A model generated the notes under the pieces. The model was not told where the DNA came from. It ran no database searches and saw nothing but the letters and a program-made list of their open reading frames with translations. A stretch of DNA of 64,000 bases from NCBI RefSeq assembly GCF_003019035.1, contig NZ_CP027447.1; one strand, written 5' to 3'. This document shows positions 24,014-52,600 of the stretch, one piece after another; the stretch's first letter is position 1; every line of letters starts with the position of its first letter. This DNA is from Escherichia coli. Lineage in GTDB: Bacteria; Pseudomonadota; Gammaproteobacteria; Enterobacterales; Enterobacteriaceae. Made by a program: the position numbers and the translations under genes.

Positions 24014-25329
24014 CAGAATCCCTCCAGTATATGACCAGCCTCACGGCGGTGACGCGAACGGGCCATCACCGGCCCTGACGGTCCGTCAGTGGCGTTTATT
24101 GCCAGAAAACAGGCCCATGTGCGGTCGGCGTGACCTGCTGCATCACTTTCGGCCACAAAGCGGGGAGTTCCGGTAGGCCCGGTAACCTTGCGAAGTTTAT
24201 GCAGATCACTGCGCAGGACCACATCTCCCGCCGGAATACGCAGGCGGCGGTCCTCAAACATCTCCCTGCCACGGGTCGCGAGGGTGAGCTTGTTCGGGCT
24301 GTTAAATATCACCCCCTCCACACGGCTTCTGCCATGGCGACCCTGTGCATCCTCCACCGGCTTTTCTCCCATCCCGGTCTGATCCATACAGCAGCGCAGC
24401 ACGCGGTAACGGAAAAATACGTCATCCAGCAAAGCATCCTGCTCAGCAAAGGTGGCCCGTTTACGGGTGATGATTTCCCGGGTCCAGTAGACATCCCCCA
24501 CCTGTTCAAGCACCCAGATGACAAACAGGTCATTACGAACAGCAATATCCACCCCCACAAAGCAGGGGCCACCCGTATAGTGCACCGGCAGCCCGGCAGC
24601 ATCGTGCTCCACGCCGTCAATCAGTTCAAACGTCAGCCAGGCCGATGCCTCATCCAGCCACTTCAGTTCAAACTCCTGTGCCCAGGCGTCATCATCGTTG
24701 AGCGCCTGTCGCATCTGTGCAATATCCCGCGGCAGACCATCACGCACGGCACGGTAAATATCCACGATGTGACGTGACCAGACATTTTCAAGGGCGTTGC
24801 TGGTCATCAGTTCATAAAACTTGTTTCCCTTGCCGTTCGGTGTCGATGTCACACGCAGTCTGTAGCCGTTGGAAATGACCGGAAACAGAGCGGTCCAGAT
24901 TTTGCGACTGTCGGCATGGAAGGCGAACTCATCCAGAAAGACGTTAGCCGCAAACCCACGAGCCGTGTCGGGATTCGCCGGCAGGGCCGTGATACGGGAG
25001 CCGCCGGGTAACTCCACCTCAAGCATGGTGTAGCGTTCGCCGCTTTCAGCACGGTAATAACTTTCCACCTCACGGGCCGCCATCCGGTAGGCGCTGCAGT
25101 GTTTTTTCACCCCCTCCACCATGGCTTCTTTTGCCTGACGCTCCCCGCGCGAGAGGATCACCCAGCGTGTACGTCCCCCTGAGGCCTCCGTTTCAAAACA
25201 GTCATCAACCAGTTCCAGCGTGGTGGTGAACGTCTTGCCCGTCTGACGGGCAAACATACCAATCTTGAAACGGGCACGATCCAGAAACCACGACTGCTGA
25301 TAGGGATACAGCTGAATGGCCGCTGTCAT
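24013..25329 (-). CDS. Terminase large subunit (Mu gp28-like)
   Basis: 438 aa with an N-terminal ATPase motif (ARQTGKTF) and C-terminal nuclease-like acidic residues. Confidence 0.8.
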   Translation of the reverse strand: MTAAIQLYPYQQSWFLDRARFKIGMFARQTGKTFTTTLELVDDCFETEASGGRTRWVILSRGERQAKEAMVEGVKKHCSAYRMAAREVESYYRAESGERYTMLEVELPGGSRITALPANPDTARGFAANVFLDEFAFHADSRKIWTALFPVISNGYRLRVTSTPNGKGNKFYELMTSNALENVWSRHIVDIYRAVRDGLPRDIAQMRQALNDDDAWAQEFELKWLDEASAWLTFELIDGVEHDAAGLPVHYTGGPCFVGVDIAVRNDLFVIWVLEQVGDVYWTREIITRKRATFAEQDALLDDVFFRYRVLRCCMDQTGMGEKPVEDAQGRHGRSRVEGVIFNSPNKLTLATRGREMFEDRRLRIPAGDVVLRSDLHKLRKVTGPTGTPRFVAESDAAGHADRTWACFLAINATDGPSGPVMARSRHRREAGHILEGF

Positions 25330-25880
25330 GAGATCACCCCGTAAATCTGTTCCCGCACCATCTTCAGGGTTTCCAGACTCAGGCGGGTGTCGCCGGACTT
25401 CGCCTGTTTTTCCAGAGCATTCATCCGCGCCTCAATTTTTGCCAGCACCTCGGCCCGGAATCGCTTGTGGGTCACCGAAGCCCGTACCAGTGTGGCTATA
25501 CTTTCCGAAGCAGTGGCCAGCAGTTTTGCGCGTTTTGCAGGATCATCACTTTCCCCGATTTCCTGCAGACGCATCAGAACATCCAGCATCTCGGTCTGAA
25601 TCAGTGCCATCATCCCGGCAGAACGATCGTCCGCCTCGTCACCGGCTTCCTGCGCCATCAGACGCGCGGCCTCGGTGGCGGCGCGGATGCGGGCCAGTTG
25701 TCGCTCCATTTTGTAGCCAAACCGCTGCAGGGAAGAGCGGGTGATGACGTATCCCTTCTCCTTCAGCAGGGCTTCCAGCCGGGCATATCCACTGAAGTTA
25801 TTCTCCGTCAGTGCCCGCTCCAGCCAGCGGCGGACCTCCGTCGGCAGAGAATCAATGCTGCTGCGACGTCCCATAATCAC
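25326..25880 (-). CDS. Putative terminase small subunit (Mu gp27-like)
   Basis: 184 aa, helical, immediately upstream of the large subunit. Confidence 0.55.
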   Translation of the reverse strand: MIMGRRSSIDSLPTEVRRWLERALTENNFSGYARLEALLKEKGYVITRSSLQRFGYKMERQLARIRAATEAARLMAQEAGDEADDRSAGMMALIQTEMLDVLMRLQEIGESDDPAKRAKLLATASESIATLVRASVTHKRFRAEVLAKIEARMNALEKQAKSGDTRLSLETLKMVREQIYGVIS

Positions 25881-27164: not shown

Positions 27165-27882
27165 AGCTGCCGCCCCCCCATGTCAGATAACGGGGGGCCA
27201 GTTCGTGCAGGATGCGCTGCGGATAATGGCGGTTCTCCCGCCAGCTGGCAGCATTGCGTCCGGCATTCACCGTGGCGACATGCCCGAACCAGCGGGTACT
27301 GTCCAGGCCTTTCTGTGATGCTAGCTGCCTGTCCCGTTGTACCCAGCCCAGACCACCGTTATAGCCCGACAGTGTCATGGCCATACGTTCGCAGTCACTG
27401 GCGGCGCTGACGCGCTGCCACAGCCAGCGGTCATAGCTGACCAGCGCCCGGATGGCCCATGCCGGATTAAACGGCTCACGGCTGTTAAGCCCCGGCATCA
27501 GCTGACTTATCCAGTCAGCAGTGGCGGGCATGAACTGCGCCAGTCCCTGAGCGCCAGCCGGCGAGACCGCATCAGGTCGCCAGCCGCTTTCCTGATGCAG
27601 TTGCGCAGCGAAATCGGCCACCGGCGCAGACAGTCCCCATTCAAGCCGGGCATTACGGATCACATCATCGCGATACTGCAGCGCAGCCTGCGGAGGCTGC
27701 GCTGCGCGGGCCTGACTGAAGAAGCCGCCACACCAGAGCAGCCAGACAATCACCAGGTTGCCAGCAAGCTGCCACCAGAAGCTGTATTTATCGTTACGTG
27801 GTTCTCCGTGTCTGATGGCGGTTACGCCCAGACCAAAGGCGAACAGAATAATGAGGGTGATTTGAGGCCAGTTCATGGTCAC
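27154..27882 (-). CDS. Endolysin, SLT-type lytic transglycosylase with N-terminal signal-anchor
   Basis: 242 aa; hydrophobic N-terminus followed by ...LHQESGWRPDAVSPAGAQGLAQFMPATADW... Confidence 0.8.
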   Translation of the reverse strand: MTMNWPQITLIILFAFGLGVTAIRHGEPRNDKYSFWWQLAGNLVIVWLLWCGGFFSQARAAQPPQAALQYRDDVIRNARLEWGLSAPVADFAAQLHQESGWRPDAVSPAGAQGLAQFMPATADWISQLMPGLNSREPFNPAWAIRALVSYDRWLWQRVSAASDCERMAMTLSGYNGGLGWVQRDRQLASQKGLDSTRWFGHVATVNAGRNAASWRENRHYPQRILHELAPRYLTWGGGSCVD

Positions 27883-28229
27883 AGTCCTGTTGCCACAGCC
27901 AGACAGACCGCTGCAACAATCAGTGCACGGCGGATTAACGCAGCAGAAAATACAAGGTGAAGGCCGGTCTGCACAGGGAAACGCCCTTCAGCCATCAGCC
28001 TGTCTTCATGTTTCAGGTACTGACCGGGACGGGCTTTGGGGAAGAGTGAACGGTCAAGCCAGTAACCCAGCACTGCTGCCAGCGTGATGAGTGCCAGCTT
28101 GTAGATCACAACAGGCAGCTGCTGTGGCGAGACCAGAGCGATGGTGCCCAGCAACAGCACTGAGGTCAGCAGCCAGCCGCTGAGGCGAGGTTTTTTAACA
28201 GGGGGAATGAATTTTTTCAGGTTTTTCAT
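27879..28229 (-). CDS. Putative holin (3 TM segments)
   Basis: ATG at 28227-28229 preceded by AAGGAG (MKNLKKFIPP...); three hydrophobic helices; first gene of the lysis cassette. The track ORF begins at an upstream GTG. Confidence 0.5.
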   Translation of the reverse strand: MKNLKKFIPPVKKPRLSGWLLTSVLLLGTIALVSPQQLPVVIYKLALITLAAVLGYWLDRSLFPKARPGQYLKHEDRLMAEGRFPVQTGLHLVFSAALIRRALIVAAVCLAVATGL

Positions 28230-28359
28230 GTGTGTCTCCTTGTCTGGTGGAGACAGCATCACAAATACAGGGCGCGAAGGATTTTAAAGCGCGTTAAGAG
28301 AGCCGGGGATACGGGATGTGCAGGATAAACGATGAATTATTCACAGAGGAGAATACGAT

Positions 28360-28785
28360 ATGACGCAGACACTGAATCCGGTCATCACTGTCACCGTGTC
28401 CGGTCCTGTGGGCAGCGGTAAAAGTTACGTACTGGCGCGGATAGAAGAGATGGTGAAACAGGAACCCGGAAACAGCGTCATTGTCGATGCTGCTGACGTG
28501 GAGAATGAGCGCCGTATGAGTGGGGATGATCTGAGCACATGGCAGAAACCACAGGCAGGTACAATTATCCGACTGGAAGAATACACTGAGCGGGTAACTC
28601 TATCATATAGTGAGGAGCGCATTTGCCTGACGAATGCACTGCTGGAAGTTATATGTCCCGAAGGCAAGAGCCCCTGGATACTACCCGATGCTGTACATGC
28701 CGCAATTGCTGCATTGTTCGTATTATACGATCAGGAGCTGGTTTTAATGGAGTTATGTAAGGTTATTAAAGCTACAGAAAAGTAA
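28360..28785 (+). CDS. Hypothetical small P-loop protein (Walker A GPVGSGKS), orphan accessory gene
   Basis: 141-aa ORF with GAGGAG RBS; Walker A at residues 15-22; divergent from the late operon; no family recognised. Confidence 0.6.
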   Translation: MTQTLNPVITVTVSGPVGSGKSYVLARIEEMVKQEPGNSVIVDAADVENERRMSGDDLSTWQKPQAGTIIRLEEYTERVTLSYSEERICLTNALLEVICPEGKSPWILPDAVHAAIAALFVLYDQELVLMELCKVIKATEK

Positions 28786-28860
28786 AAATATTATCGGTAT
28801 CCTGTGGATGATAAAAACACGCTACCCACAGGATTACTTGTATAAAACCGTGGATAACAA

Positions 28861-29382
28861 CTAGATAAAACCATCATAGAAGTCATCCCTCTTACGAGAC
28901 CTGATACGAACTGGATTTGGCTCTCCTTTCAACCATACAGCACTGTTTTGACCACAAACCGGACACATGCAAAAACTGTCTTTTCGTATATGCAGGATAC
29001 TTTTCAGGTTTTTGGAATCAAAACAAGTCTGGCAAATATAATGTTCAGTTTCATCGTTTCCCGTATAACGATAAGCATAGAAGCCTTTTTCTTCACTCAG
29101 TAACGTCAGTTTATAATTACCGCGAAAGTTAAGAAGGTCTTCCAGAGAGCGAATTTTCTCTTCCAGATTGGTAATGGTTTTTTGCTGTTCTCCTAGCTTG
29201 CTCGTTACCTCAAAGAACTGCCCCTGTGCTTCAATAATTTTACTCTGTAATTCACTGGTCAAAGCGGCCTGTTTTATTTGATCACGCTCTTTTATTATTT
29301 TCTGAGCAGTACTGCTGATATAGCCAAGAGCTGTTAATAAAGCGTTTGTATCCATAGCACCCCGATATCCTCTAAACCACAT
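28861..29382 (-). CDS. Hypothetical coiled-coil protein with C-terminal zinc-ribbon (CxxC...CxCxxC), orphan accessory gene
   Basis: 173 aa (or 164 aa from the second ATG at 29355); heptad-like N-terminal half; C-terminal YICQTC...CMCPVCG; visibly AT-rich DNA. Confidence 0.55.
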   Translation of the reverse strand: MWFRGYRGAMDTNALLTALGYISSTAQKIIKERDQIKQAALTSELQSKIIEAQGQFFEVTSKLGEQQKTITNLEEKIRSLEDLLNFRGNYKLTLLSEEKGFYAYRYTGNDETEHYICQTCFDSKNLKSILHIRKDSFCMCPVCGQNSAVWLKGEPNPVRIRSRKRDDFYDGFI

Positions 29383-29422
29383 TAACAGAAATCACTTCAT
29401 CCCTGCCGCATCATGAAAGAAC

Positions 29423-29454
29423 GACCAGCCCGGCACCCGAAAGCCGGGCTGGTC
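29423..29454. other. Perfect 12-bp GC-rich stem-loop in the divergent intergenic region
   Basis: GACCAGCCCGGC-acccgaaa-GCCGGGCTGGTC between the 173-aa gene start and the methyltransferase gene. Confidence 0.5.
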
Positions 29455-29557
29455 ATCGTCCCACAGGAATGCACTGTGAGCCGACCGAGGTTCAGTCAGT
29501 CTCGCGAGACCAGACTAGCCTGCCATATTTTTAATAATTGTAAAAGGCTTACAGATT

Positions 29558-30322
29558 ATGAAAATGCAGTCATTACCCATCGTTCCATGGATTGGTGGCA
29601 AACGCCGCCTTGCAAAACACATTCTGCCGCTGTTTCCGGCGCATGAATGTTATGTGGAGCCGTTTTGTGGGGCAGCAGCGCTCTATTTTCTTAAGACACC
29701 CGGCAAGATCGAAGTCATTAATGATATCAACGGTGAACTGGTGAATCTGTACCGGGTGGTAAAGCATCACCTGGAAGAATTTGTCCACCAGTTCAAATGG
29801 GCGCTGGTCAGCCGTCAGATCTACAAGTGGCTGCAGATCACCCCGGAAGAAACACTGACGGATATCCAGCGTGCAGCACGGTTCTACTACCTCCAGAAGC
29901 AGGCGTTTGGCGGCAAGGTAGCAGAACACAGCTTCGGTACCTCCACCACATCCCCGCCACGCTTCAACCTGCTGCGTATTGAAGAAGAACTGTCAGCGGC
30001 ACACCTGCGACTTTCCAGAACAGTCATAGAACACATGGACTGGCAACAGTGCATTGAGCGCTATGATCGTCCGCACACGCTGTTCTACTGTGATCCGCCG
30101 TATCTGGGTACGGAAGGCTATGGTGTGGATTTTCCTGAAGGGAACTACTCGCGGCTGGCAGAGCTGGCCCGGTGCATCAGAGGAAAAATGATAATTTCGG
30201 TGAACGACATCCCGCAGATGCGCGAGGTGTTCACTGGACTGAACATACAGACAGTGAATATCAACTACAGTCTGGCGGGGAAACCCACGCCGCGCCGTGA
30301 ACTGATAATCTGCAACTTCTGA
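29558..30322 (+). CDS. DNA adenine methyltransferase, Dam-like
   Basis: 254 aa with the N-terminal AdoMet-binding region (FCGAAALYF) and the catalytic DPPY motif (YCDPPYLG). Confidence 0.85.
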   Translation: MKMQSLPIVPWIGGKRRLAKHILPLFPAHECYVEPFCGAAALYFLKTPGKIEVINDINGELVNLYRVVKHHLEEFVHQFKWALVSRQIYKWLQITPEETLTDIQRAARFYYLQKQAFGGKVAEHSFGTSTTSPPRFNLLRIEEELSAAHLRLSRTVIEHMDWQQCIERYDRPHTLFYCDPPYLGTEGYGVDFPEGNYSRLAELARCIRGKMIISVNDIPQMREVFTGLNIQTVNINYSLAGKPTPRRELIICNF

Positions 30323-30329
30323 AACAGAA

Positions 30330-30352
30330 CCGGAAAGCACAATGCTTTCCGG
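30330..30352. terminator. Hairpin between the convergent methyltransferase and repressor genes
   Basis: CCGGAAAGCA-caa-TGCTTTCCGG, 10-bp perfect stem, 8 bp after the methyltransferase stop. Confidence 0.45.
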
Positions 30353-30438
30353 TAAATCAGCCCATTCCTGCCATGCTACTGACGGCGCTTTCTGAAAGCG
30401 TCCAGATCAACCACCTGTCCTTTGTGTCCGGGTCAGAA

Positions 30439-30816
30439 TCAGCCTGTAAATTTACTTGGTTTGGGTTGAGTATAGAATCGCCCAACCTCAAGAAATGAGC
30501 GTCGTTGTTCCGGAGTCATTTCATCAAATGCGTCCATTAATTTTTGTTTTTCTGGTGACATTTTTGGGACAACATTGGTCATTACATCCCCTCTCTGTCC
30601 TGTAACAACGTAAAGCACGTCAAGCCCTAAAGTAGCCCAAATTGCCAAAGCATCTGCTCCGGGAGCGGATTCATCCTTTTCCCACCGCAATTGGCTTTTA
30701 TAGGATGCCCCCACCAATTCAGCAAACTCAGACTGACTAAATCCTAGGCGGTTTCGTTCTTCTTTTAATCGTGAGCCAAGTGACATTTTTGTCCAATACC
30801 TATTTACATGTCCCAT
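30439..30816 (-). CDS. Phage repressor, XRE-family HTH
   Basis: 125 aa with HTH LGFSQSEFAELVGASYKSQLRWEKDE; divergent from the early operon. Confidence 0.7.
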   Translation of the reverse strand: MGHVNRYWTKMSLGSRLKEERNRLGFSQSEFAELVGASYKSQLRWEKDESAPGADALAIWATLGLDVLYVVTGQRGDVMTNVVPKMSPEKQKLMDAFDEMTPEQRRSFLEVGRFYTQPKPSKFTG

Positions 30817-30878
30817 TTTTGGGATAATAATCTAACATATATAGAGCAAACATCATTGCGTTAATAAAGGAGGCAACA

Positions 30879-31067
30879 ATGACTGCAGAGCAGGTCAAAG
30901 CCCATTTCCGCCGCAACGGAATCACCTTTACCCAGTGGGCAAAACAGAACAACTACACCCGAGCAGAGGTTTACCGCGTACTGAATGGACAGGTAAAAGC
31001 GAACTATGGCAAAGCCCATGAAATCGCCGTCAAGCTGGGATTAAAAACCATCACTGACGCCGCTTAA
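30879..31067 (+). CDS. Small DNA-binding early regulator (Ner/Cro-like by position)
   Basis: 62 aa, strong RBS AAGGAGG; first gene of the early operon, divergent from the repressor. Confidence 0.5.
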   Translation: MTAEQVKAHFRRNGITFTQWAKQNNYTRAEVYRVLNGQVKANYGKAHEIAVKLGLKTITDAA

Positions 31068-31113
31068 AAAGATACAGCATGCGAAAAAGATTATCACATA
31101 TTGAAAAAGAGGT

Positions 31114-31428
31114 ATGCAGATGAGTAAGACGAATGTTTCAAGCTCCGGCAGTCGTATCCTCCGGGTACTCAAAGCGCTGCGCGGTCATGCCCTGAACGGT
31201 ATTTCCAACGGTGAACTGGCAGCAGCACTGCACGAGTCACCGGCAAACATCAACCGGGCACTCAACACCCTCATTGAAGAAGGGCTGGCCCTGAAACTGG
31301 AGAATGGACGTTTTGCTCCTGGCATCCAGTTACTGCAGATCGCCATGGCTCACAGTAACGAGATGGCACGAGCGCAGGATCGTATTAACGAAATCAACCA
31401 ACGTGTCATTTCAGGTAGTCGTTTGTAA
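31114..31428 (+). CDS. Winged-helix (IclR-type HTH-like) DNA-binding protein
   Basis: 104 aa; RILRVLKALRGHALNGISNGELAAALHESPANINRALNTLIEEGLA pattern. Confidence 0.45.
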   Translation: MQMSKTNVSSSGSRILRVLKALRGHALNGISNGELAAALHESPANINRALNTLIEEGLALKLENGRFAPGIQLLQIAMAHSNEMARAQDRINEINQRVISGSRL

Positions 31429-31438
31429 GGAGTAATCA

Positions 31439-32350
31439 ATGGGACGCACTAAATCACCAATGACCACAGATCTGAATGCTGAGGTGCCGCTTTCTGATGA
31501 TCTCAACGTCAGCCTGAATACCATGACACAGCATCGTATGGAGATCATGCAGCAGTTCGGCGACGGCCTGCCCTATGAACGTAATCGCATCGTTCACGAA
31601 GCTCGGTTTTATATGGACCAGAGTGCGGAGGCTATGCTGGAGGCAGGTAAACGTTTGGTTATCCTGAAGGAAAATGAACCTCATGGAGAATACGTACAAA
31701 TCGTCAAAGAACAGTTGAACCTTGAGCCACGCATAGCCCAAAAAATGGCCCAAGCTGCTCTGAAGTTTTTATCTCCAGAGCTGACATCAAAAGCGAAAAC
31801 GTTTTCGCATTTGGGAAGATCAAAACTGTACGAATTGATGTTAGAGGATGATGAAGACCTTGCCGAACTGGCCGACGGTGGCACAGTTGCCGGCCTGACG
31901 CTTGACGACGTTGATCGCATGTCAGTACGTGAATTGCGTCAGTCTCTTCGCGAAGCCCGCGAAACCAACGCAGCACAACAGCGCGTACTCGCCGACAAAA
32001 ATGAAAAAATAGACTCACTCTCCACCAGACTGGAGAAGAAATCCCGTATTCAGCCGCCTGAGCCTGATGAGGAGGTTAAGAAGCTGCGGGCGGAAGTGAC
32101 AGCATTAGCGGTTGAGGCGGAATCTGCCATCGCCGTTCGATTGTCCAGCGCTTTTGAGACGCTGTGTGCATATTGTGCTGAAAACATGATTGATACCCCC
32201 AGAGACTTCATGGCAGGCCTGGTCTGTCAACTGGAAAGCACAGCGCGTAGCCTGCGCTCCACATTTGACCTGCCGGACGAGCCAACAGGCAATGCAGCGC
32301 CTTCATGGCTGACTGAGCCGACGCCACAGATTAACGGGCTGGAGGCATAA
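31439..32350 (+). CDS. Hypothetical early protein
   Basis: 303 aa, helical/acidic, RBS TAAGGAG; immediately upstream of the transposase. Confidence 0.45.
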   Translation: MGRTKSPMTTDLNAEVPLSDDLNVSLNTMTQHRMEIMQQFGDGLPYERNRIVHEARFYMDQSAEAMLEAGKRLVILKENEPHGEYVQIVKEQLNLEPRIAQKMAQAALKFLSPELTSKAKTFSHLGRSKLYELMLEDDEDLAELADGGTVAGLTLDDVDRMSVRELRQSLREARETNAAQQRVLADKNEKIDSLSTRLEKKSRIQPPEPDEEVKKLRAEVTALAVEAESAIAVRLSSAFETLCAYCAENMIDTPRDFMAGLVCQLESTARSLRSTFDLPDEPTGNAAPSWLTEPTPQINGLEA

Positions 32351-32353
32351 CCA

Positions 32354-34135
32354 ATGAATGCTGCCCTGACTGAACGACTGGTTTATGTCGCCCGCGCGGC
32401 ACGTGACGCGGGGCATGGTAAACGCGGTGCAATATACGACGCTGCCTGTGCTGAACTTGGCATGTCCCGCGCCACTCTGCTGCGCAGGCTGAAGGAGGTC
32501 TCTGTGACTGATAAACGCAAAAAACGCGCCGATGCCGGGCGCAGCGCTCTGACCCGCGACGAAGCCGCGCTGATATCTGCCACACTGCGTGAGGCCACCC
32601 GCAAGAACGGTAAGCGTCTCTATTCCATCGCAGATGCAGTGGAAACCCTGCGGGCTAACGGCTTTATCTCCGCAGGCAGAACAGATGAAACCACCGGTGA
32701 GTTTTTCCCGTTGTCCGAAGATGCCATCAGTCGTGCCCTGCGTAACTATGGCCTGCACCCGGAACAACTGGATGCCCCTGCACCGCATACCGAAGTGGCC
32801 AGTCTGCATCCCAATCATGTCTGGCAGATTGACGCCTCACTCTGCACGCTTTACTACCTGAGCAATGGACATAAAGGGCTGCAGGTGATGGACAGCGCGA
32901 AGTTCTACAAGAACAAGCCCGCTAACCTTGCCCGTATCGCCAGTGACCGCGTGTGGAGTTACGAGATTACCGACCATGCCAGCGGCTGGATTTACGTTGA
33001 GTATGTGACGGGCGCGGAATCCGGTGAGAACCTGTGTTCTGTGCTTATCAACGCCATGCAGGAGCGCGGTGGCGCAGACGTGCTGCACGGCGTGCCGAAA
33101 ATACTCTATCTCGACCCTGGCTCGGCAAACACCGCGGGTATGACGAAAAACATGTGCCGCTCACTGGGCATCGACCTGATAGCGCACAGGCCGCATAACG
33201 CCCGCGCCACCGGACAGGTGGAAAAGGCGCGTGACATTATCGAACGCAAGCTGGAGCCGGGTCTGAAGTTCCGGCCGGTTCACAGTCTGGAAGAACTCAA
33301 CGCGCTGGCCGCGAAATGGCGCAGCCACTTTAACGCCACGGCTGTTCACAGCCGCCACGGTAAAACCCGCACGGATATCTGGCTGAAGATTACTGCTGAG
33401 CAGCTGAAAAAAGCGCCTTCCGTTGAAGTATGCCGTGAACTGGCTGTGGCGACACCAGAACTCCGCAAAGTCACGCCAAAACTTCGTGTCTCGTTCCGGG
33501 GCACTGAATTTGACGTATCAACGGTACCGGGCGTACTGGTTGGTGAAAAACTGATGATTACCCGTAACCCATGGCGCAGCGATGTGGCACAGGTGGTTCT
33601 GACCGGTGAGGACGGCCACGAGACGTTCTTCCTGGTCGAAGAGGTCAGAAAGAACGAGTTTGGCTTTGCTGAAGGCGCGGCGGTATTTGGCGAAAGTTAC
33701 AAAGCCCTGCCGGAAACCCCGGCACAGATGGCGGCAAAAGAAACCGAAGCGCTGGTTACCGGTACAGACAACGCCGCAGATGCAGCCGCCGCACGCAAGG
33801 CGAAGGCGCTGCCGTTCGGCGGGCGGCTTGACCCGTATAAACATATCGACGACACCACACTTCCGGCCTATATGCCGAAGCGTGGTCAGGCCTCTGACGT
33901 ACGCGGGCCGCGCACTGAACAACGTCCCATGACTCATGTGGAGGCCGCGAAAGCCCTGCGCGATAAGTTCAGCGCCGACGGCCTTACCTGGACGCCGGAA
34001 CATTACCGCCAGTTAACGGCACAGTACCCGGACGGCGTACCGGAAGCTGCACTGGATGAAGTCATGGCCACGCTGACCACGCCGGCCCGCAGCAGCGTTA
34101 TCAGCAGCGTTATCAGCATTGTTAACGGCAACTGA
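32354..34135 (+). CDS. DDE transposase (integrase catalytic core; functional analogue of Mu A)
   Basis: 593 aa; candidate catalytic region HVWQIDAS...YLDPGSANTAG; followed by the transposition ATPase gene. Confidence 0.8.
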   Translation: MNAALTERLVYVARAARDAGHGKRGAIYDAACAELGMSRATLLRRLKEVSVTDKRKKRADAGRSALTRDEAALISATLREATRKNGKRLYSIADAVETLRANGFISAGRTDETTGEFFPLSEDAISRALRNYGLHPEQLDAPAPHTEVASLHPNHVWQIDASLCTLYYLSNGHKGLQVMDSAKFYKNKPANLARIASDRVWSYEITDHASGWIYVEYVTGAESGENLCSVLINAMQERGGADVLHGVPKILYLDPGSANTAGMTKNMCRSLGIDLIAHRPHNARATGQVEKARDIIERKLEPGLKFRPVHSLEELNALAAKWRSHFNATAVHSRHGKTRTDIWLKITAEQLKKAPSVEVCRELAVATPELRKVTPKLRVSFRGTEFDVSTVPGVLVGEKLMITRNPWRSDVAQVVLTGEDGHETFFLVEEVRKNEFGFAEGAAVFGESYKALPETPAQMAAKETEALVTGTDNAADAAAARKAKALPFGGRLDPYKHIDDTTLPAYMPKRGQASDVRGPRTEQRPMTHVEAAKALRDKFSADGLTWTPEHYRQLTAQYPDGVPEAALDEVMATLTTPARSSVISSVISIVNGN

Positions 34136-38351: not shown

Positions 38352-38793
38352 ACAACGTCTTATCCAGCTCATTCATATTGCCCGTAATGAACTGGGTATG
38401 GATGAAGACACCTACCGCCAGATGTTACAGGGGCTGACCGGTAAAGCCTCAACCAAAGGAATGGATACCACACAACTAAACTGCGTGCTGGAATCCATGA
38501 AAAGGAAAGGCTTTCGCGTTAAGCCTGCCGGAAAAGCCAGCTCCGGTTTACCGCTGGATAACCATCCGCAGTCCAGGAAAATCCGTGCGCTATGGCTTGA
38601 AATGGCTGCTGCCGGCATTGTTCGTGACCGTTCAGAAAATGCATTAGCGCGGTGGATCAAGCGGGAAACGGGCATCAGCGCCCTGCGCTGGCTCAATACT
38701 GAACAGGCAAGCAGTGTTATTGAGAAACTGAAGAAGTGGCAGCACAGAGCTGCGGGAGTAAAACATGAGCGACCTGAATCAGTTTCGAAGTAA
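38341..38793 (+). CDS. GemA/gp16-like protein
   Basis: MMTKQRLIQLIHIARNELGMDEDTYRQMLQGLTGKAS... matches the GemA family pattern. Confidence 0.6.
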   Translation: MMTKQRLIQLIHIARNELGMDEDTYRQMLQGLTGKASTKGMDTTQLNCVLESMKRKGFRVKPAGKASSGLPLDNHPQSRKIRALWLEMAAAGIVRDRSENALARWIKRETGISALRWLNTEQASSVIEKLKKWQHRAAGVKHERPESVSK

Positions 38794-39163
38794 AGGGCCG
38801 GAACTCCTGGTGGAGCTGGCACAGCATACCTCTGAGACCGTTCGCGAGATTATTGATATTGAGCCCGCAATTGCCGACCAGATTGGTCAGGCCGTCGCGA
38901 ACCGAATGATGCAGGTCTGGGGCGGGCAAAACGTTTATTTCCCGATGGGCATGGTATGGAAGGTCAGTCAGCGCGACCGGGAAATCTTCAGGGAGTTTAA
39001 CGGACGCAACCACCACGAACTGGCCCGCAAGTTTGGTGTTTCGCTTCAGTGGGTCTACAGCGTGGTTAAGCGGGTCAGAAAAGAAGAACTGGATCGGATG
39101 CAGGGCAGGTTGTTTGATGAAGATCTGCCAGAGGAGACGAAAGACGTTAACAAATCCAGATAA
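38765..39163 (+). CDS. Mor/C-family transcription activator
   Basis: C-terminal GGQNVYFPMG...RDREIFREFNGRNHHELARKFGVSLQWVYSVVKR matches the Mor/C pattern (GGxxVYIPxG...FNGRN..EL...YGV...VY). Confidence 0.7.
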   Translation: MSDLNQFRSKGPELLVELAQHTSETVREIIDIEPAIADQIGQAVANRMMQVWGGQNVYFPMGMVWKVSQRDREIFREFNGRNHHELARKFGVSLQWVYSVVKRVRKEELDRMQGRLFDEDLPEETKDVNKSR

Positions 39164-39240: not shown

Positions 39241-39277
39241 TGCTCTCTCTTTAGTATTCAGGATGCAGGGAGAAAAT

Positions 39278-39910
39278 ATGTTTGACGTTTCGTTGTTAAA
39301 TCTGCCATGGGCAACACTGGTGACCCTGACCAGTGGCTATATTGGGTATTTTATTGCGAATGTGGGACTGAAGGATCACCACAAGCCCATTGAGGTGACT
39401 TTTTCTTCGCTGATTTTTGGCCTGACAGCAATGATGGCTTACCAGGCTGTTATGTGGGCAGGTCTGAATGCCTGGCTGGCAACACCACCAGCACTTCTGT
39501 GTGCCGTTACATGCGGTGCGTGGTGGCGCAGGTACGGTCGCAAATGGATGTACAGATTACTGTGGAATAATGATATTTCATGGTCTGACGATACCAGCTC
39601 AGCATGGCAGGCAATGTTTGATCAAACAGGCTTCAGCGTTACCGAGGTCAGAGTGATTCTTCGCGATGGTTCCGGTATGATGTCACGGCTGCCAGGGAAC
39701 TTTGAAGAGTGGCCTAACGGTCCGTTTACCCTGGGGAATAAAGGCGATATGGTTCTTTACGTCACGCACAGCAGCCCTTCAGGCAGTAACGAATGGGAAG
39801 AGTATAAAGGCGTGGTTGATAAGTACTGGGGAGCTCTGGCAACCTATATTCCAGCAGATCAGATTGCCAGAGTGGAGATCAGGCGCGTTCGTGCAACGAA
39901 CGATGAATGA
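39278..39910 (+). CDS. Hypothetical membrane protein (3 predicted TM helices plus soluble C-terminal domain), terminal accessory gene
   Basis: 210 aa from the ATG at 39278 with RBS AGGGAG; follows a terminator; last gene before the prophage end. Confidence 0.55.
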   Translation: MFDVSLLNLPWATLVTLTSGYIGYFIANVGLKDHHKPIEVTFSSLIFGLTAMMAYQAVMWAGLNAWLATPPALLCAVTCGAWWRRYGRKWMYRLLWNNDISWSDDTSSAWQAMFDQTGFSVTEVRVILRDGSGMMSRLPGNFEEWPNGPFTLGNKGDMVLYVTHSSPSGSNEWEEYKGVVDKYWGALATYIPADQIARVEIRRVRATNDE

Positions 39911-40435: not shown

Positions 40436-40903
40436 ATGATTAAACGCGTATTGGTTGTTTCAATGGTAGGTCTGTCTCTTGTCGGTTGTGTTAATAACGA
40501 CACCCTGTCAGGGGATGTTTATACCGCTTCTGAAGCGAAACAAGTACAGAATGTCAGCTATGGCACCATCGTTAACGTACGTCCGGTACAGATTCAGGGC
40601 GGTGATGATTCCAACGTTATCGGTGCAATTGGCGGTGCTGTTCTTGGTGGTTTCCTGGGGAATACTGTTGGCGGCGGAACCGGGCGTTCTCTGGCTACTG
40701 CAGCAGGCGCTGTTGCAGGTGGCGTAGCCGGTCAGGGCGTACAGAGTGCAATGAACAAAACGCAGGGTGTCGAGCTGGAAATTCGTAAAGACGATGGTAA
40801 TACCATCATGGTGGTACAGAAACAAGGCAACACTCGTTTCTCTCCGGGCCAACGTGTCGTACTGGCCAGCAATGGCAGTCAGGTGACCGTTTCCCCGCGC
40901 TAA
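40436..40903 (+). CDS. slyB: Outer membrane lipoprotein SlyB
   Basis: 155 aa MIKRVLVVSMVGLSLVGCVNN... with lipobox and Gly-rich repeats. Confidence 0.9.
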   Translation: MIKRVLVVSMVGLSLVGCVNNDTLSGDVYTASEAKQVQNVSYGTIVNVRPVQIQGGDDSNVIGAIGGAVLGGFLGNTVGGGTGRSLATAAGAVAGGVAGQGVQSAMNKTQGVELEIRKDDGNTIMVVQKQGNTRFSPGQRVVLASNGSQVTVSPR

Positions 40904-40911
40904 ATAAGTTT

Positions 40912-40939
40912 GCGTGTGGTCAGGTTACTGACCACACGC
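40912..40939. terminator. Hairpin shared by convergent slyB and slyA
   Basis: GCGTGTGGTCAG-gtta-CTGACCACACGC, 12-bp perfect stem. Confidence 0.5.
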
Positions 40940-40949
40940 CCCCTTCATT

Positions 40950-41384
40950 TCACCCTTTGGCCTGTAACTCAATGATATTATGCTCAAGTTTTGCGATGAG
41001 CTTAATCAGTTGTTCCAGTTCCTCTGCGGAGATGCCATGTAAAATTTCCGCGCGGGTTTTGTTAATAACAGCTTCCATTTCGCTGATCAGCGGCTCTGCC
41101 TTTTCCGTCAGTTTAATACGTTTAGCCCGACGATCGCTGGCACAAGTTTGACGCGAAATTAACCCTTTTTCTTCCAGTTGGTCCAGAGTACGGACCAGTG
41201 ATGGCTGCTCGATGCCAATCGCTTTTGCCAGTTGAATTTGCGACTGGTCTGGAGGTAACTGATGGATATTGTGTAACGTAACCCAATGGGTTTGTGTTAA
41301 CTCCAGCGGTTTCAGGCGATGGTCTATCAGAGCACGCCATATGCGCACCAACCGTGCCAGATCAGAACCTAGTGGCGATTCCAA
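40950..41384 (-). CDS. slyA: MarR-family transcriptional regulator SlyA
   Basis: ...[33 protein letters not shown]...; start taken at the TTG with AAGGAG spacing (the track ORF starts two codons upstream at 41390). Confidence 0.85.
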
Positions 41385-41584
41385 TTTCATCTCCTTATAA
41401 TTAGCTTGCTAAGATATTATGCGGCTTTTAGAATAGTGTGCAGCAATTGTATTGCTAAAACAAATGTATTGCTGCATTTGGTTACCGTCAGACATATTTT
41501 TCAGAAATTGCGCGTAAATTTTTCGCACTTAAAGAATATTTATTAATCTAACGCAATATATTCGGTCGTAAAGGAATCTACTTT

Positions 41585-41821
41585 GTGAAGTTTATGCTCA
41601 ATGCAACAGGATTGCCCTTACAAGATCTGGTGTTCGGTGCGTCCGTATACTTTCCTCCGTTTTTCAAAGCCTTCGCGTTTGGATTCATCATCTGGCTTGT
41701 CGTACACCGCCTGCTTCGTGGCTGGATCTACGCCGGTGACATCTGGCATCCCTTGTTAATGGATTTATCGCTGTTTGCGATTTGCGTTTGCCTTGCCCTG
41801 GCAATACTGATTGCGTGGTAA
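41585..41821 (+). CDS. ydhI: Small inner membrane protein YdhI
   Basis: 78-aa hydrophobic ORF upstream of ydhJ. Confidence 0.8.
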
Positions 41822-41823
41822 CT

Positions 41824-42681
41824 ATGTCAATTAAAACAATTAAGTATTTCTCAACAATCATTGTAGCGGTAGTTGCGGTTCTTGCCGGATGGTGGCTGTG
41901 GAATTATTACATGCAATCTCCGTGGACACGCGACGGGAAAATACGCGCAGAACAGGTTTCTATCACCCCTCAGGTGTCGGGACGTATTGTTGAGCTGAAT
42001 ATAAAAGACAACCAACTGGTTAACGCGGGGGATCTTCTGCTCACGATCGATAAAACGCCCTTTCAGATCGCCGAGCTGAACGCACAGGCTCAGCTGGCGA
42101 AAGCGCAATCTGACCTCGCAAAAGCCAATAACGAAGCGAATCGTCGTCGTCATCTCTCACAAAATTTTATTTCTGCCGAAGAACTCGATACCGCTAACCT
42201 CAATGTTAAAGCGATGCAGGCCAGTGTTGATGCCGCACAGGCGACGCTGAAACAGGCACAATGGCAACTGGCGCAAACGGAAATTCGCGCCCCGGTGAGT
42301 GGATGGGTGACTAACCTCACTACCCGCATCGGCGATTACGCTGACACCGGGAAACCGCTGTTTGCCCTTGTCGACAGCCACTCGTTTTACGTCATTGGTT
42401 ATTTTGAAGAAACCAAGTTGCGCCATATCCGCGAAGGTGCACCAGCACAAATTACCCTCTATAGTGATAACAAAACGTTACAGGGTCACGTTTCCAGTAT
42501 CGGTCGGGCGATTTATGATCAGAGCGTTGAAAGTGACTCAAGCCTTATTCCGGATGTGAAACCTAACGTCCCCTGGGTTCGACTCGCCCAACGCGTTCCC
42601 GTCCGCTTTGCGCTGGATAAAGTCCCAGGCGATGTCACGCTGGTGTCGGGCACCACCTGTAGCATTGCCGTAGGTCAATAA
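41824..42681 (+). CDS. ydhJ: HlyD-family membrane fusion protein YdhJ
   Basis: Start at MSIKTIKYF... right after the ydhI stop; periplasmic coiled coil. Confidence 0.8.
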
Positions 42682-44693
42682 TGAACGCATCGTCATGGTC
42701 CTTGCGCAATTTGCCCTGGTTCAGGGCCACGCTGGCGCAATGGCGTTATGCGTTACGCAATACCATTGCCATGTGTCTGGCGCTGACGGTTGCCTATTAT
42801 TTGAATCTTGATGAACCCTATTGGGCGATGACCTCGGCTGCCGTGGTTAGCTTTCCCACCGTTGGCGGTGTCATCAGCAAAAGCCTCGGACGCATCGCTG
42901 GCAGTTTGCTCGGAGCCATTGCGGCACTGCTTCTTGCCGGACATACACTTAATGAGCCGTGGTTTTTTCTTTTGAGCATGGCGGCGTGGCTTGGCTTTTG
43001 TACCTGGGCCTGTGCGCACTTCACGAATAATGTCGCGTATGCATTTCAACTGGCGGGCTACACGGCTGCCATCATCGCCTTTCCGATGGTTAATATTACT
43101 GAGGCCAGCCAGCTGTGGGATATCGCTCAGGCGCGCGTTTGCGAGGTGATTGTCGGTATTTTGTGCGGCGGCATGATGATGATGATCCTGCCGAGCAGTT
43201 CCGATGCTACAGCCCTTTTAACCGCATTGAAAAACATGCACGCCCGATTGCTGGAACATGCCAGTTTACTCTGGCAGCCTGAAACAACCGATGCCATTCG
43301 TGCAGCACATGAAGGGGTGATTGGGCAGATACTGACCATGAATTTGCTCCGTATCCAGGCTTTCTGGAGCCACTATCGTTTTCGCCAGCAAAACGCGCGC
43401 CTTAATGCGCTGCTCCACCAGCAATTACGTATGACCAGTGTCATCTCCAGCCTGCGACGTATGTTGCTCAACTGGCCCTCACCGCCAGGTGCCACACGAG
43501 AAATTCTCGAACAGTTGCTGACGGCGCTCGCCAGTTCGCAAACAGATGTTTACACCGTCGCACGTATTATCGCCCCGCTACGCCCGACCAACGTCGCCGA
43601 CTATCGGCACGTCGCCTTCTGGCAGCGACTACGTTATTTTTGCCGCCTTTATCTGCAAAGTAGTCAGGAATTACATCGTCTGCAAAGCGGTGTAGATGAT
43701 CATACCAGACTCCCACGGACATCCGGCCTGGCTCGTCATACCGATAACGCCGAAGCTATGTGGAGCGGGCTGCGTACATTTTGTACGTTGATGATGATTG
43801 GCGCATGGAGTATTGCTTCGCAATGGGATGCCGGTGCCAATGCATTAACGCTGGCAGCAATTAGCTGCGTACTCTACTCCGCCGTCGCAGCACCGTTTAA
43901 GTCGTTGTCACTGCTGATGCGTACGCTGGTGTTACTTTCGCTATTCAGCTTTGTGGTCAAATTTGGCCTGATGGTCCAGATTTGCGATCTGTGGCAATTT
44001 TTACTGTTTCTCTTTCCACTGCTGGCGACGATGCAGCTTCTTAAATTGCAGATGCCCAAATTTGCCGCACTGTGGGGGCAACTGATTGTTTTTATGGGTT
44101 CGTTTATCGCTGTCACTAATCCCCCAGTGTATGATTTTGCTGATTTTCTTAACGATAATCTGGCAAAAATCGTTGGCGTTGCGCTGGCGTGGTTAGCGTT
44201 CGCCATTCTGCGTCCAGGATCGGATGCTCGTAAAAGTCGCCGTCATATTCGCGCGCTGCGCCGGGATTTTGTCGATCAACTAAGCCGCCATCCATCACTG
44301 AGTGAAAGCGAATTTGAATCGCTCACTTATCATCACGTCAGTCAGTTGAGTAACAGCCAGGATGCGATGGCTCGCCGTTGGTTATTACGCTGGGGTGTAG
44401 TGCTGCTGAACTGTTCTCATGTTGTCTGGCAATTGCGCGACTGGGAATCGCGTTCCGATCCGTTATCGCGAGTACGGGATAACTGTATTTCACTGTTGCG
44501 CGGAGTGATGAGTGAGCGTGGCGTTCAGCAAAAATCACTGGCGGCCACACTTGAAGAATTACAGCGAATTTGCGACAGCCTTGCCCGTCATCATCAACCT
44601 GCCGCCCGTGAGCTGGCGGCAATTGTCTGGCGGCTGTACTGCTCGCTTTCGCAACTTGAGCAAGCACCGCCGCAAGGTACGCTGGCCTCTTAA
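42681..44693 (+). CDS. ydhK: FUSC-family efflux/inner membrane protein YdhK
   Basis: 670 aa multi-TM protein. Confidence 0.8.
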
Positions 44694-49646: not shown

Positions 49647-52600
49647 ATGGCAGATAATCTAAACCCTTCATCGCCCCTGCCGGACGTGTTTTCACCGGCG
49701 ACCCGCGACTGGTTTCTTCGCGCCTTTAAACAGCCGACCGCTGTCCAGTCGCAAACCTGGCATGTGGCGGCGCGAGGCGAACATGCGCTGGTGATTGCAC
49801 CGACTGGCTCCGGGAAAACGCTGGCAGCATTTCTCTACGCCCTCGATCAGCTCTTCCGCGAAGGCGGCGAAGATACCCGCGAGGCGCATAAGCGTAAAAC
49901 CTCACGCATTCTCTATATTTCACCGATCAAAGCTCTGGGCACCGACGTTCAGCGCAACTTGCAGATCCCGTTACAGGGTATTGCCGATGAACGGCGGCGG
50001 CGCGGCGAAACGGAAGTCAATCTTCGCGTGGCGATCCGTACTGGCGATACGCCTGCACAGGAACGCAGCAAACTCACCCGTAATCCGCCGGATATTCTGA
50101 TCACCACACCCGAATCACTCTATCTGATGCTGACCTCCCGCGCGCGCGAAACGCTACGCGGCGTCGAAACGGTAATTATTGATGAAGTCCACGCGGTAGC
50201 GGGCAGTAAACGTGGTGCGCATCTGGCGTTAAGTCTGGAGCGGCTCGATGCGCTGCTCCACACCTCAGCACAGCGAATTGGCCTTTCTGCCACTGTACGC
50301 TCAGCCAGCGATGTGGCAGCATTTCTTGGTGGCGATCGCCCGGTTACGGTAGTCAACCCGCCCGCAATGCGCCATCCGCAGATACGGATTGTCGTACCGG
50401 TCGCCAATATGGATGATGTCTCATCGGTCGCCAGCGGCACCGGCGAAGACAGCCATGCCAGCCGGGAAGGCTCCATCTGGCCATATATTGAAACGGGTAT
50501 CCTTGATGAAGTTTTGCGCCATCGCTCGACCATTGTCTTTACTAATTCGCGGGGGCTGGCGGAAAAACTGACGGCACGATTGAATGAGCTTTACGCCGCT
50601 CGCTTACAGCGTTCCCCGTCTATCGCCGTTGATGCGGCCCATTTCGAGTCGACCTCCGGCGCAACCTCTAACCGTGTACAAAGTAGCGACATTTTTATTG
50701 CCCGCTCACACCACGGCTCCGTCTCTAAAGAACAACGAGCAATCACCGAACAGGCGCTGAAATCGGGTGAATTACGCTGCGTGGTCGCAACCTCCAGTCT
50801 CGAACTGGGGATTGATATGGGCGCGGTGGATCTGGTGATTCAGGTGGCGACGCCGCTTTCTGTTGCCAGTGGGTTACAACGCATTGGACGTGCCGGACAT
50901 CAGGTTGGCGGTGTATCTAAAGGGCTTTTTTTCCCCCGAACCCGGCGTGACTTAGTCGATTCCGCAGTCATTGTAGAGTGTATGTTCGCAGGCAGGCTGG
51001 AAAACCTGACACCACCGCATAATCCACTCGACGTCCTTGCGCAGCAAACCGTTGCCGCCGCGGCGATGGATGCATTACAGGTAGACGAATGGTACTCCCG
51101 CGTACGCCGTGCCGCACCGTGGAAAGATCTGCCAGGACGTGTTTTTGACGCCACGCTGGATATGCTTTCCGGGCGCTATCCCTCTGGCGATTTTTCTGCT
51201 TTTCGCCCCAAACTAGTCTGGAACAGGGAGACCGGGATATTGACCGCCCGACCTGGCGCTCAATTGTTGGCGGTTACCAGCGGCGGCACCATTCCGGATC
51301 GTGGCATGTATAGCGTGTTATTACCCGAAGGTGAAGAACAGGCCGGTTCGCGGCGGGTGGGTGAACTGGATGAGGAGATGGTATATGAGTCACGGGTGAA
51401 CGATATTATCACTCTTGGCGCAACCTCATGGCGGATCCAGCAAATCACCCGCGATCAGGTGATTGTGACTCCTGCTCCAGGTCGTTCTGCCCGCCTTCCC
51501 TTCTGGCGTGGTGAAGGTAACGGACGTCCGGCAGAATTAGGCGAGATGATCGGCGATTTTCTCCATTTACTGGCGGATGGCGCGTTCTTTTCCGGGACTA
51601 TTCCCCCGTGGTTGGCAGAAGAAAATACGATCGCCAATATTCAGGGGTTGATTGACGAGCAGCGCAACGCGACGGGTATCGTTCCAGGTAGTCGTCATCT
51701 TGTCCTCGAACGGTGCCGTGATGAAATTGGTGACTGGCGTATTATTTTGCACTCTCCCTATGGAAGACGGGTGCATGAACCCTGGGCGCTGGCGATTGCC
51801 GGGCGAATACATGCACTATGGGGCGCTGACGCGTCTGTGGTTGCCAGTGATGACGGCATTGTTGCGCGCATTCCTGACACCGATGGTAAATTGCCTGATG
51901 CCGCGATTTTTTTGTTTGAACCAGAAAAGTTGCTGCAAATTGTCCGCGAGGCGGTAGGCAGCTCGGCACTTTTCGCCGCCCGTTTTCGCGAATGCGCCGC
52001 GCGGGCATTATTAATGCCGGGCCGCACGCCGGGCCATCGCACCCCGCTCTGGCAACAACGACTGCGCGCCAGTCAGTTGCTGGAAATCGCTCAGGGATAT
52101 CCGGATTTTCCGGTCATTCTCGAAACCCTACGCGAATGTCTGCAAGATGTTTATGATCTTCCCGCGCTGGAACGTTTGATGCGTCGCCTGAACGGTGGCG
52201 AAATTCAAATATCCGATGTAACGACCACTACGCCCTCGCCTTTCGCCGCCAGTTTATTGTTCGGCTATGTCGCGGAATTTATGTACCAGAGCGACGCCCC
52301 GCTGGCAGAGCGCCGGGCATCCGTACTGTCGCTGGACAGCGAGTTACTGCGCAATCTACTCGGACAGGTCGAACCGGGGGAATTACTCGACCCGCAGGTC
52401 ATTCGCCAGGTGGAAGAAGAGTTGCAACGACTGGCTCCTGGCAGAAGAGCGAAAGGTGAAGAAGGATTGTTCGACCTGCTGCGCGAACTGGGGCCAATGA
52501 CCGTTGAAGACCTGGCGCAACGGCATACAGGCAGCAGTGAAGAGATTGCGTCGTATCTGGAAAATCTTCTTGCAGTAAAACGAATCTTCCCGACGATGAT

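Follow-up and report, generated by a model that had tools for sequence, protein, structure and literature searches.

A Rip1-like gene in an accessory-gene slot of a BcepMu-like prophage of Escherichia coli

The window discussed here is a stretch of 64,000 nucleotides of Escherichia coli DNA (contig NZ_CP027447.1 of assembly GCF_003019035.1) that includes a BcepMu-like transposable prophage. Between the start of the late operon of this prophage and its dam gene lie two convergent open reading frames, ORF1 and ORF2 (Table 1), which an earlier note, made from the sequence alone, had taken for an orphan two-gene module with an exclusion, abortive-infection or toxin-like function. ORF2, called 'hypothetical' throughout the public records, can now be assigned with high confidence to the Rip1 (ring interacting pore 1) family and given a testable function as the probable agent of single-protein, terminase-triggered abortive infection. 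What the locus adds is a further, divergent member (ORF2) of a single-gene defence family already described, and no system of a novel kind. ORF1, a minimal member of the lineage-specific phrog_3787 family, stands outside the ORF2 system, and the interval from the holin gene to dam and the repressor is a recombination hot spot for accessory genes.

ORF2 and the Rip1 family

Rip1 of Escherichia phage HK446 (gp37, 164 amino acids) has been solved by cryo-electron microscopy in complex with the small terminase of phage T6 (PDB 9OOX, with 12 Rip1 chains deposited). In the accounts on which we draw, it is described as a prophage-encoded defence, 12 copies of which cap the 11-mer small terminase and for which a pore mechanism is proposed (PMC12908700), and it is listed among defences that sense the small terminase subunit (bioRxiv 10.64898/2026.04.30.721860).

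ORF2 and HK446 Rip1 match the same PHROG, phrog_1244 (E=1.5e-24 and 2.2e-53, respectively). An exhaustive phmmer search with ORF2 gathers 240 clusters (at 50% identity) with E<1e-3, nearly all of them of 140-180 amino acids and matched over almost the whole length. When 70 members are aligned, the N-terminal helix is variable, often with an 'RD' motif, and is followed by a coiled-coil region, a conserved 'R.RY.L ... G.FAY' beta-hairpin and the motif 'EP.H..CQ.CFD..KSVL ... CP.C'. The profile of these 70 sequences has one decisive match among PDB sequences, Rip1 (9OOX chain L, E=1.7e-28), in which profile positions 5-145 are set against residues 14-157 of 164. The single ORF2 sequence also finds Rip1 (phmmer, E=4e-5; BLASTP, E=5e-9, 28% identity), and Foldseek comparison of the ORF2 model with the PDB returns 9oox_M and 9oox_L as the sole matches with E<1e-3 (probability 1.00, E about 1e-4; the next match has E=0.9). 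It is to the profile search of PDB sequences that the link with HK446 is owed: when 50,697 phage records were searched by tblastn with ORF2, HK446 was not among the matches, all of which were Pseudomonas Mu-like phages (E=2e-5). The profile hidden Markov model and structure-based searches that the earlier note had proposed both reach Rip1 for ORF2; for ORF1 they give phrog_3787 and Walker-A-level similarity only, with no Pfam domain above threshold and no fold match. The statement that neither protein matches a recognisable family falls, since each matches a PHROG and ORF2, in addition, a solved and named protein.

The likeness extends to individual residues: H105, C108, C111, C131 and C134 of ORF2 align residue for residue with H118, C121, C124, C148 and C151 of HK446 Rip1. 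Among the 70 family members C108, C111 and C131 are invariant and H105 is nearly so; metal binding by this motif is a prediction. The AlphaFold model of ORF2, built on the family alignment (predicted local distance difference test, pLDDT, 86.5), has a single long helix at residues 3-79 and strands at 81-130. This agrees with the heptad-rich N-terminal half of the earlier description, and the C-terminal CxxC...CxCxxC motif described there is present in the translation. The most hydrophobic 17-residue window comprises residues 5-21 in ORF2 (Kyte-Doolittle 1.07) and residues 13-29 in HK446 Rip1 (1.21), both values lying below the classical transmembrane-helix level; the ORF2 segment is a candidate for membrane insertion, with a putative role in pore formation.

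In sum of their architecture, ORF2 and HK446 Rip1 have in common a length of 164 residues, a most hydrophobic stretch at the N-terminus, a helix of ~75 residues, beta-hairpins and the HxxCxxC...CxxC motif, and both are solitary, opposite-strand accessory genes in temperate phages of E. coli. They differ in sequence (~28% identity only), in carrier (a Mu-like transposable, myophage-type prophage for ORF2, a lambdoid phage for Rip1), in slot (holin-dam for ORF2; N-cIII for HK446 gp37, which has N on one side and the cIII/anti-restriction genes of the PL operon on the other and runs against local transcription), and in the basic C-terminal tail of ORF2, RIRSRKRDDFYDGFI, which HK446 Rip1 lacks. 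D3112 orf25 and its homologues (in DMS3, JBD30, MP38 and other Casadabanvirus) share with ORF2 the phrog_1244 assignment, transposable Mu-like carriers and an orientation opposite to the flanking operon. Their identity to ORF2 is about 22-27%, and they are placed between terminase genes rather than upstream of the lysis cassette, D3112 orf25 being antisense between a small-terminase-like and the large-terminase gene; no reported function for this group was found in the literature. Rip1-family genes, annotated as hypothetical, are found in many Pseudomonas Mu-like phages (D3112, DMS3, JBD30, JBD69, MP38, MP42, LPB1, H70 and PaMx73), where they run antisense between a small-terminase-like gene and that for the large terminase. 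The family, very recently described, is here extended to Mu-like transposable prophages of E. coli, Citrobacter and Salmonella, and ORF2, at its distance from the solved Rip1, is a useful natural variant for mapping the determinants of trigger specificity.

ORF2 most likely starts at the ATG at 29355 (MDTN...), because all homologues begin there, the Prokaryotic Genome Annotation Pipeline (PGAP) uses that start in strain JB2, and HK446 Rip1 has the same length. The earlier note was right about a convergent reading frame with a Cys-rich C-terminus, but its longer version (28861..29382, 173 amino acids) was rejected: the ATG at 29382 lies in backbone that is common to relatives without the gene. 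The ratio of nonsynonymous to synonymous divergence (dN/dS) of ORF2 against its relatives is 0.10-0.25. That of ORF1 is 0.15-0.32. This purifying selection marks both as genuine coding genes.

Proposed function of ORF2

By analogy with HK446 Rip1, the lysogen would produce ORF2 in a soluble, inert form. A superinfecting phage would supply its ring-shaped small terminase, on which ORF2 subunits would assemble (the solved complex, 12 Rip1 on an 11-mer ring, is the precedent), and the N-terminal helices of these subunits would form a membrane pore, killing or depolarising the cell before the invader matures; that is, abortive infection. We regard this account as a whole, a single-gene abortive-infection protein with a terminase-triggered pore, as fairly likely. 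For ORF2 the guess of exclusion or abortive infection made in the earlier note is very probably right, as ORF2 is a homologue of Rip1, a prophage defence that has been solved with a phage small terminase. The observed basis of the proposal is family membership, a shared fold, a conserved metal-ligand motif, a solitary arrangement, sporadic distribution, low GC and purifying selection; that the gene is expressed in the lysogen, what triggers the protein, that it forms a pore and which phages it acts on are inferences.

Several points weigh against this account. The Foldseek TM-scores are modest (0.46-0.57), which may reflect comparison of a monomer model with an assembled state. With only ~28% of residues identical to those of the characterised Rip1, ORF2 could differ from it in trigger specificity and even in the class of trigger. 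PADLOC-DB (2023), Pfam and NCBIfam hold no model of the Rip1 family, so there is no curated cut-off to pass: Pfam gives nothing above threshold for ORF2 or for any member of the family alignment, NCBIfam gives only spurious sub-threshold matches for ORF2 and ORF1, and PADLOC-DB 2.0.0, which predates Rip1, yields LmuB as the best ORF2 match (E=2e-4, in the coiled coil only) and no significant match to a defence model. The promoter of ORF2 is not confidently identified, the candidate (an extended -10-like TGTTAATGT at 29387-29379) being a by-eye reading of the sequence only, and a strong hairpin lies upstream of the gene. Finally, the mechanism of Rip1 is taken here from a conference report, one citing sentence and the title of a PDB entry.

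The logic that would apply to ORF2 by analogy with Rip1, direct recognition of a conserved virion-assembly protein and then cell death, is also that of Avs1-3 and TerI, which are listed as sensing the large terminase/portal and the small terminase, respectively (bioRxiv 10.64898/2026.04.30.721860). The Avs proteins are large STAND nucleoside triphosphatases (NTPases) with separate effector domains, whereas ORF2 has 164 residues and no NTPase domain; PADLOC and Pfam searches detected no sequence relation between them.

ORF2 might instead serve the life cycle of its own prophage, by modulating the prophage's small terminase or packaging or by contributing a pore to the timing of lysis. It adjoins the lysis cassette, the D3112-like Pseudomonas phages have their homologue between terminase genes, and the known ligand of the Rip1 family is a small terminase. 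However, ORF2 and the late operon are encoded on opposite strands, >99% of closely related E. coli prophages share the lysis and packaging genes but do not have ORF2, the gene is much poorer in G+C than the phage, and the HK446 homologue has been characterised as a defence against a heterologous phage, T6. We consider a role in the prophage's own cycle improbable.

An exchanged low-GC cassette

The AT-richness of the locus, which had been judged by eye, is confirmed by computation. GC is 40.5% in the cassette (28556-29372), 39.0% in ORF2 and 36% in the convergent spacer, as compared with 56.5% in the late genes and a prophage median of 55.8%; the cassette is the prophage minimum, and 0.3% of 817-bp windows of the prophage have GC as low. 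Against the relatives M114 and PhiKM, the alignment departs from about 28555 and is lost from about 28770 to 29372. Within ORF1, synonymous divergence (dS) from M114 is 0.11 for codons 1-65 and 1.17 for codons 66-135, and against M114 and AR_0015 it rises about tenfold (0.11 to 1.1-1.2) past codon 65. This jump, to a different allele in codons 66-135, places a recombination breakpoint inside ORF1 near 28555. The 3' half of ORF1 is closer to Salmonella alleles (FVLYDQELV.MELCK) than to the common E. coli allele. Horizontal acquisition, as the earlier note had it, fits the low-GC stretch, a horizontally exchanged accessory cassette. The notion that both genes were inserted has to be trimmed: ORF2 and the 3' part of ORF1 lie in exchanged DNA, but the conserved backbone takes in the promoter region of ORF1 and its initial ~65 codons.

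All nearer relatives of ORF2, at 43-99% identity, are carried by BcepMu-like prophages of E. coli, Citrobacter and a Salmonella-type lineage, and all occupy the slot between holin and dam. The flanking backbone and ORF1 relatives are present in 635 of 5,426 complete E. coli genomes, the full Rip1 cassette in one (strain JB2, 98.5% identity). The majority of the other backbone carriers, many strains of sequence type 131 (ST131) included, have a 1.64-kb alternative that consists of a 247-amino-acid ORF1 allele, a 134-amino-acid gene and a 71-amino-acid gene. Other variants have genes for 193, 328 or (in KP12) 188 amino acids, with or without dam. The alternative cargo falls entirely in PHROGs of unknown function, and a PADLOC search of nine alternative cargo proteins gave no real match; it offers a compact candidate list for defence-gene screens. 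An exchange site is thereby marked in a prophage group of about 12% of complete E. coli genomes, ST131 strains among them.

The slot is variable in other ways. The dam gene is absent in CUVET21-PYO5 and AR_0015, where a 328-amino-acid gene (phrog_10002) adjoins the repressor, and it is split into two reading frames in two other relatives. In Citrobacter prophages, the Rip1-like gene and the convergent 235/263-amino-acid gene that occupies the ORF1 slot share their last 4 nt; the latter keeps an 'MT..P' start and lacks the P-loop. One Salmonella protein joins an N-terminus of this Citrobacter-slot type to an ORF1-type C-terminal helix module.

Are ORF1 and ORF2 one system?

The earlier note had proposed a two-gene defence or toxin system. 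In such a system the P-loop protein would be the effector or energiser and the zinc-ribbon protein the sensor. In its favour, ORF1 and ORF2 are neighbours that converge, the exchanged low-GC segment takes in the 3' half of ORF1, and in the four close loci examined (those of the window, of JB2 and of two others) the 141-amino-acid ORF1 allele always accompanies a Rip1-like gene, a linkage that the shared recombination breakpoint inside ORF1 accounts for. Against a joint system, ORF1-family genes are present without any Rip1-like gene in about 634 of the 635 E. coli genomes and in many Salmonella, and Rip1-like genes lie beside three kinds of gene in the ORF1 slot, with non-homologous 235/263-amino-acid genes without a P-loop (Citrobacter) and 207/253-amino-acid ORF1 variants (elsewhere) among these neighbours. 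Rip1 homologues, characterised and distant ones alike (HK446, D3112, and the BcepMu-like prophages of E. coli, Citrobacter and Salmonella-type hosts), are solitary and have varying neighbours, and convergent genes cannot be co-transcribed. An obligate pair was rejected, each gene occurring independently of the other. Judged by these patterns of occurrence, ORF1 and ORF2 do not appear to be a functional pair, and a two-gene system is very unlikely.

ORF1, a P-loop-motif protein

The coordinates, length, P-loop, strong ribosome-binding site and convergence with ORF2 that the earlier note gave for ORF1 are all present in the sequence, the ribosome-binding site being GAGGAG, with a spacing of 8 nt to the ATG. 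At 90% identity, the relatives of ORF1 fall into 271 clusters, 140-351 amino acids long, and all the named ones are from E. coli or Salmonella, save one partial Pseudomonas entry; PhiKM is the sole carrier among the 50,697 phage records. In every E. coli or Salmonella locus examined, the ORF1-family gene is the holin gene's immediate divergent neighbour. There is very little variation in residues 1-75, which include the Walker A motif, M53, G55 and D57, W61, P64, G67 and T68, and L72 and E74. A second, helical module, residues 82-135, is usually present (W106-LPDA-H-IAAL..YDQ.L..EL.K134), and members differ in inserts of 0 to about 190 residues between and after the two modules.

For an NTPase, the evidence goes no further than the Walker A motif. 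Like P-loop NTPases (ABC, AAA, KAP), ORF1 has that motif after a beta-strand and before a helix. Unlike them, it has no threshold match in Pfam or NCBIfam, no LSGGQ and no fold match, and its conserved domain comprises only ~75 residues, with a candidate Walker B, IIRLEE (residues 69-74), in which L72 and E74 are invariant and E73 is variable (E/N/K). Its Pfam P-loop matches (AAA/ABC/KAP), with the single sequence and with every family member, are all below threshold and cover residues ~4-55. The ORF1 profile finds only Walker-A-level matches to the same N-terminal residues in the PDB (E about 1e-3 or weaker), the best match in PADLOC-DB 2.0.0 is mad8 (E=0.0029, Walker A only), and the AlphaFold model is of low confidence (pLDDT 65.5, no sheet called) and has no Foldseek match in the PDB. 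'Minimal NTPase' and toxin, the earlier labels, therefore go beyond this Walker-A-level similarity. PGAP names relatives 'ABC transporter ATPase' or 'KAP family NTPase'. The first of these was rejected for ORF1, which has no LSGGQ, an ABC_tran i-Evalue of 0.06, and 14-15 bits with NCBIfam ABC models whose cutoffs are 266-379; the current annotation of this polymorphic family is a mislabel.

The diversity of the family suggests, tentatively, a role in phage-phage or phage-host conflict. ORF1 could be an anti-phage, exclusion or counter-defence determinant in which a nucleotide-binding N-terminal domain is combined with rapidly exchanged specificity modules. The near-invariance of the N-terminal 75 residues beside highly mosaic inserts and C-termini speaks for such a role, as do purifying selection, the confinement of the family to one prophage lineage, and a location in a hot spot where the only cargo that can be identified is a defence gene. 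On the other side, the similarity to PADLOC models goes no further than Walker A, there is no fold match and the model is of low confidence. Moreover, ORF1 is fixed beside the late promoter in nearly all E. coli and Salmonella members, so that a housekeeping or regulatory role in the phage fits equally well. We hold the conflict role to be possible and no better than that.

A wider reading is of similarly low probability. The holin-repressor interval of enterobacterial BcepMu-like prophages could be a previously unrecognised defence hot spot, with Rip1 one of many cargoes (the 134- and 71-amino-acid pair, the 193- and 328-amino-acid proteins and the KP12 188-amino-acid protein among them); the ORF1 family could be a new polymorphic conflict protein, in which a miniature 75-residue Walker-A domain drives exchangeable specificity modules; and ORF2 could sense a ring-forming phage protein other than the T-even small terminase.

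It is most improbable that ORF1 is the decayed remnant of the 242-247-amino-acid gene of most E. coli relatives, truncated by insertion of the cassette: although only positions 1-136 of the 242-position phrog_3787 profile are matched and most E. coli copies have 247 amino acids, the 141-amino-acid form still has the two conserved modules, shares its end point with many Salmonella members, is preceded by a strong ribosome-binding site, and is 88-99% identical in independent loci with dN/dS of 0.15-0.17. A truncated pseudogene was rejected on these grounds (dN/dS about 0.16).

Control regions and prophage context

The features of the locus and its neighbours are collected in Table 1.

Table 1. 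Coordinates of features in and around the ORF1/ORF2 locus (positions in the window)
Feature	Position	Strand	Evidence
Holin gene; opens the leftward lysis/late operon and borders the locus on the left	27879..28229	-	phrog_1528, E=1e-53
Divergent control region holin/ORF1, near-invariant backbone	28230..28359		almost 100% nucleotide identity among the window, M114, JB2 and PhiKM
ORF1, 141 amino acids, minimal member of a polymorphic P-loop-motif family	28360..28785	+	phrog_3787, E=1.8e-74
Walker A motif GPVGSGKS, ORF1 residues 15-22	28402..28425	+	translation; nearly invariant in family
Low-GC exchangeable cassette: 3' part of ORF1, convergent spacer and Rip1-like gene	28556..29372		alignment divergence, dS jump, GC
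Inverted repeat, 9 bp, ATCCTGTGG...CCACAGGAT, in the spacer between the convergent genes	28799..28834		RNA fold z = -2.5 (+ strand), -3.5 (- strand)
ORF2, Rip1-family protein, 164 amino acids	28861..29355	-	phrog_1244, PDB 9OOX profile match, AlphaFold/Foldseek
Zinc-ribbon-like motif H105-x2-C108-x2-C111 ... C131-x2-C134 of ORF2	28954..29043	-	70-member alignment
N-terminal hydrophobic, small-residue segment of ORF2, residues 5-21, ALLTALGYISSTAQKII	29293..29343	-	hydrophobicity windows
Conserved backbone, cassette to dam	29356..29557		conserved in every relative, whether or not it has the Rip1 gene
Dam-family orphan N6-adenine DNA methyltransferase, right neighbour	29558..30322	+	TIGR00571, 116.7 bits (cutoff 114.85); PADLOC MTase_II/oMTase; phrog_56
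Helix-turn-helix (HTH) repressor	30439..30816	-	
DDE transposase	32354..34135	+	
Mor/C-type late activator	38765..39163	+	phrog_532

The region between holin and ORF1 presumably holds the late promoter and that of ORF1, and a sigma-70 scan of it gave no convincing promoter. In the wider sigma-70 promoter and terminator scan, sites were no more numerous than in shuffled sequence and there was no convincing promoter for ORF1 or ORF2. The inverted repeat between the convergent genes is possibly a bidirectional terminator; a simple terminator scan did not call it. On the other side of ORF2, the promoters of that gene and of dam would be expected in the conserved backbone. This DNA is strongly structured between 29400 and 29540 (minus-strand fold -62.5 kcal/mol, z=-4.1), with a G+C-rich hairpin of 12-15 bp at 29423..29454 that is followed by GUUCUUUCAU, and with a weak promoter-like site on the minus strand at 29564-29537. 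The structure could be a leftward terminator or an RNA of ~100 nt antisense to the dam leader; an Rfam scan of 27500-31500 gave no match.

The prophage (~33 kb, roughly 6.3-40 kb of the window) has as its nearest phage record Escherichia phage PhiKM (genus Bcepmuvirus; 92.5% identity across 68% of a 3.1-kb query). Leftward from 28229, on the minus strand, are the holin (called a 116-amino-acid 'putative holin' by PGAP in relatives), an SLT-type endolysin, spanin, a Mu gp27-like small terminase at 25326..25880, the large terminase and structural genes. Rightward from 30879, on the plus strand, follow a ner-like gene, an IclR-like HTH gene, DUF3102, the transposase, a MuB-like ATPase and the late activator. 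The repressor/ner switch proper is at about 30817-30878, ~1.5-2.5 kb from the ORF1/ORF2 locus; the earlier note was right to place the locus in the prophage between late operon and repressor, but not in the switch itself. The final gene at the right end of the prophage, after the late activator (39275-39910), specifies a predicted membrane protein of 211 amino acids (phrog_12870) and sits in DNA of lower GC (about 46-49%). It is a probable further accessory gene, and a PADLOC search with its product found no match. To the right of the prophage, at 40436-44693, are host genes whose translations we take to be SlyB, SlyA (MarR family) and YdhI/J/K, which would place the prophage next to slyB in the E. 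coli chromosome. Farther on, also outside the prophage, is a very long reading frame of 1,538 amino acids (49647-54263, + strand).

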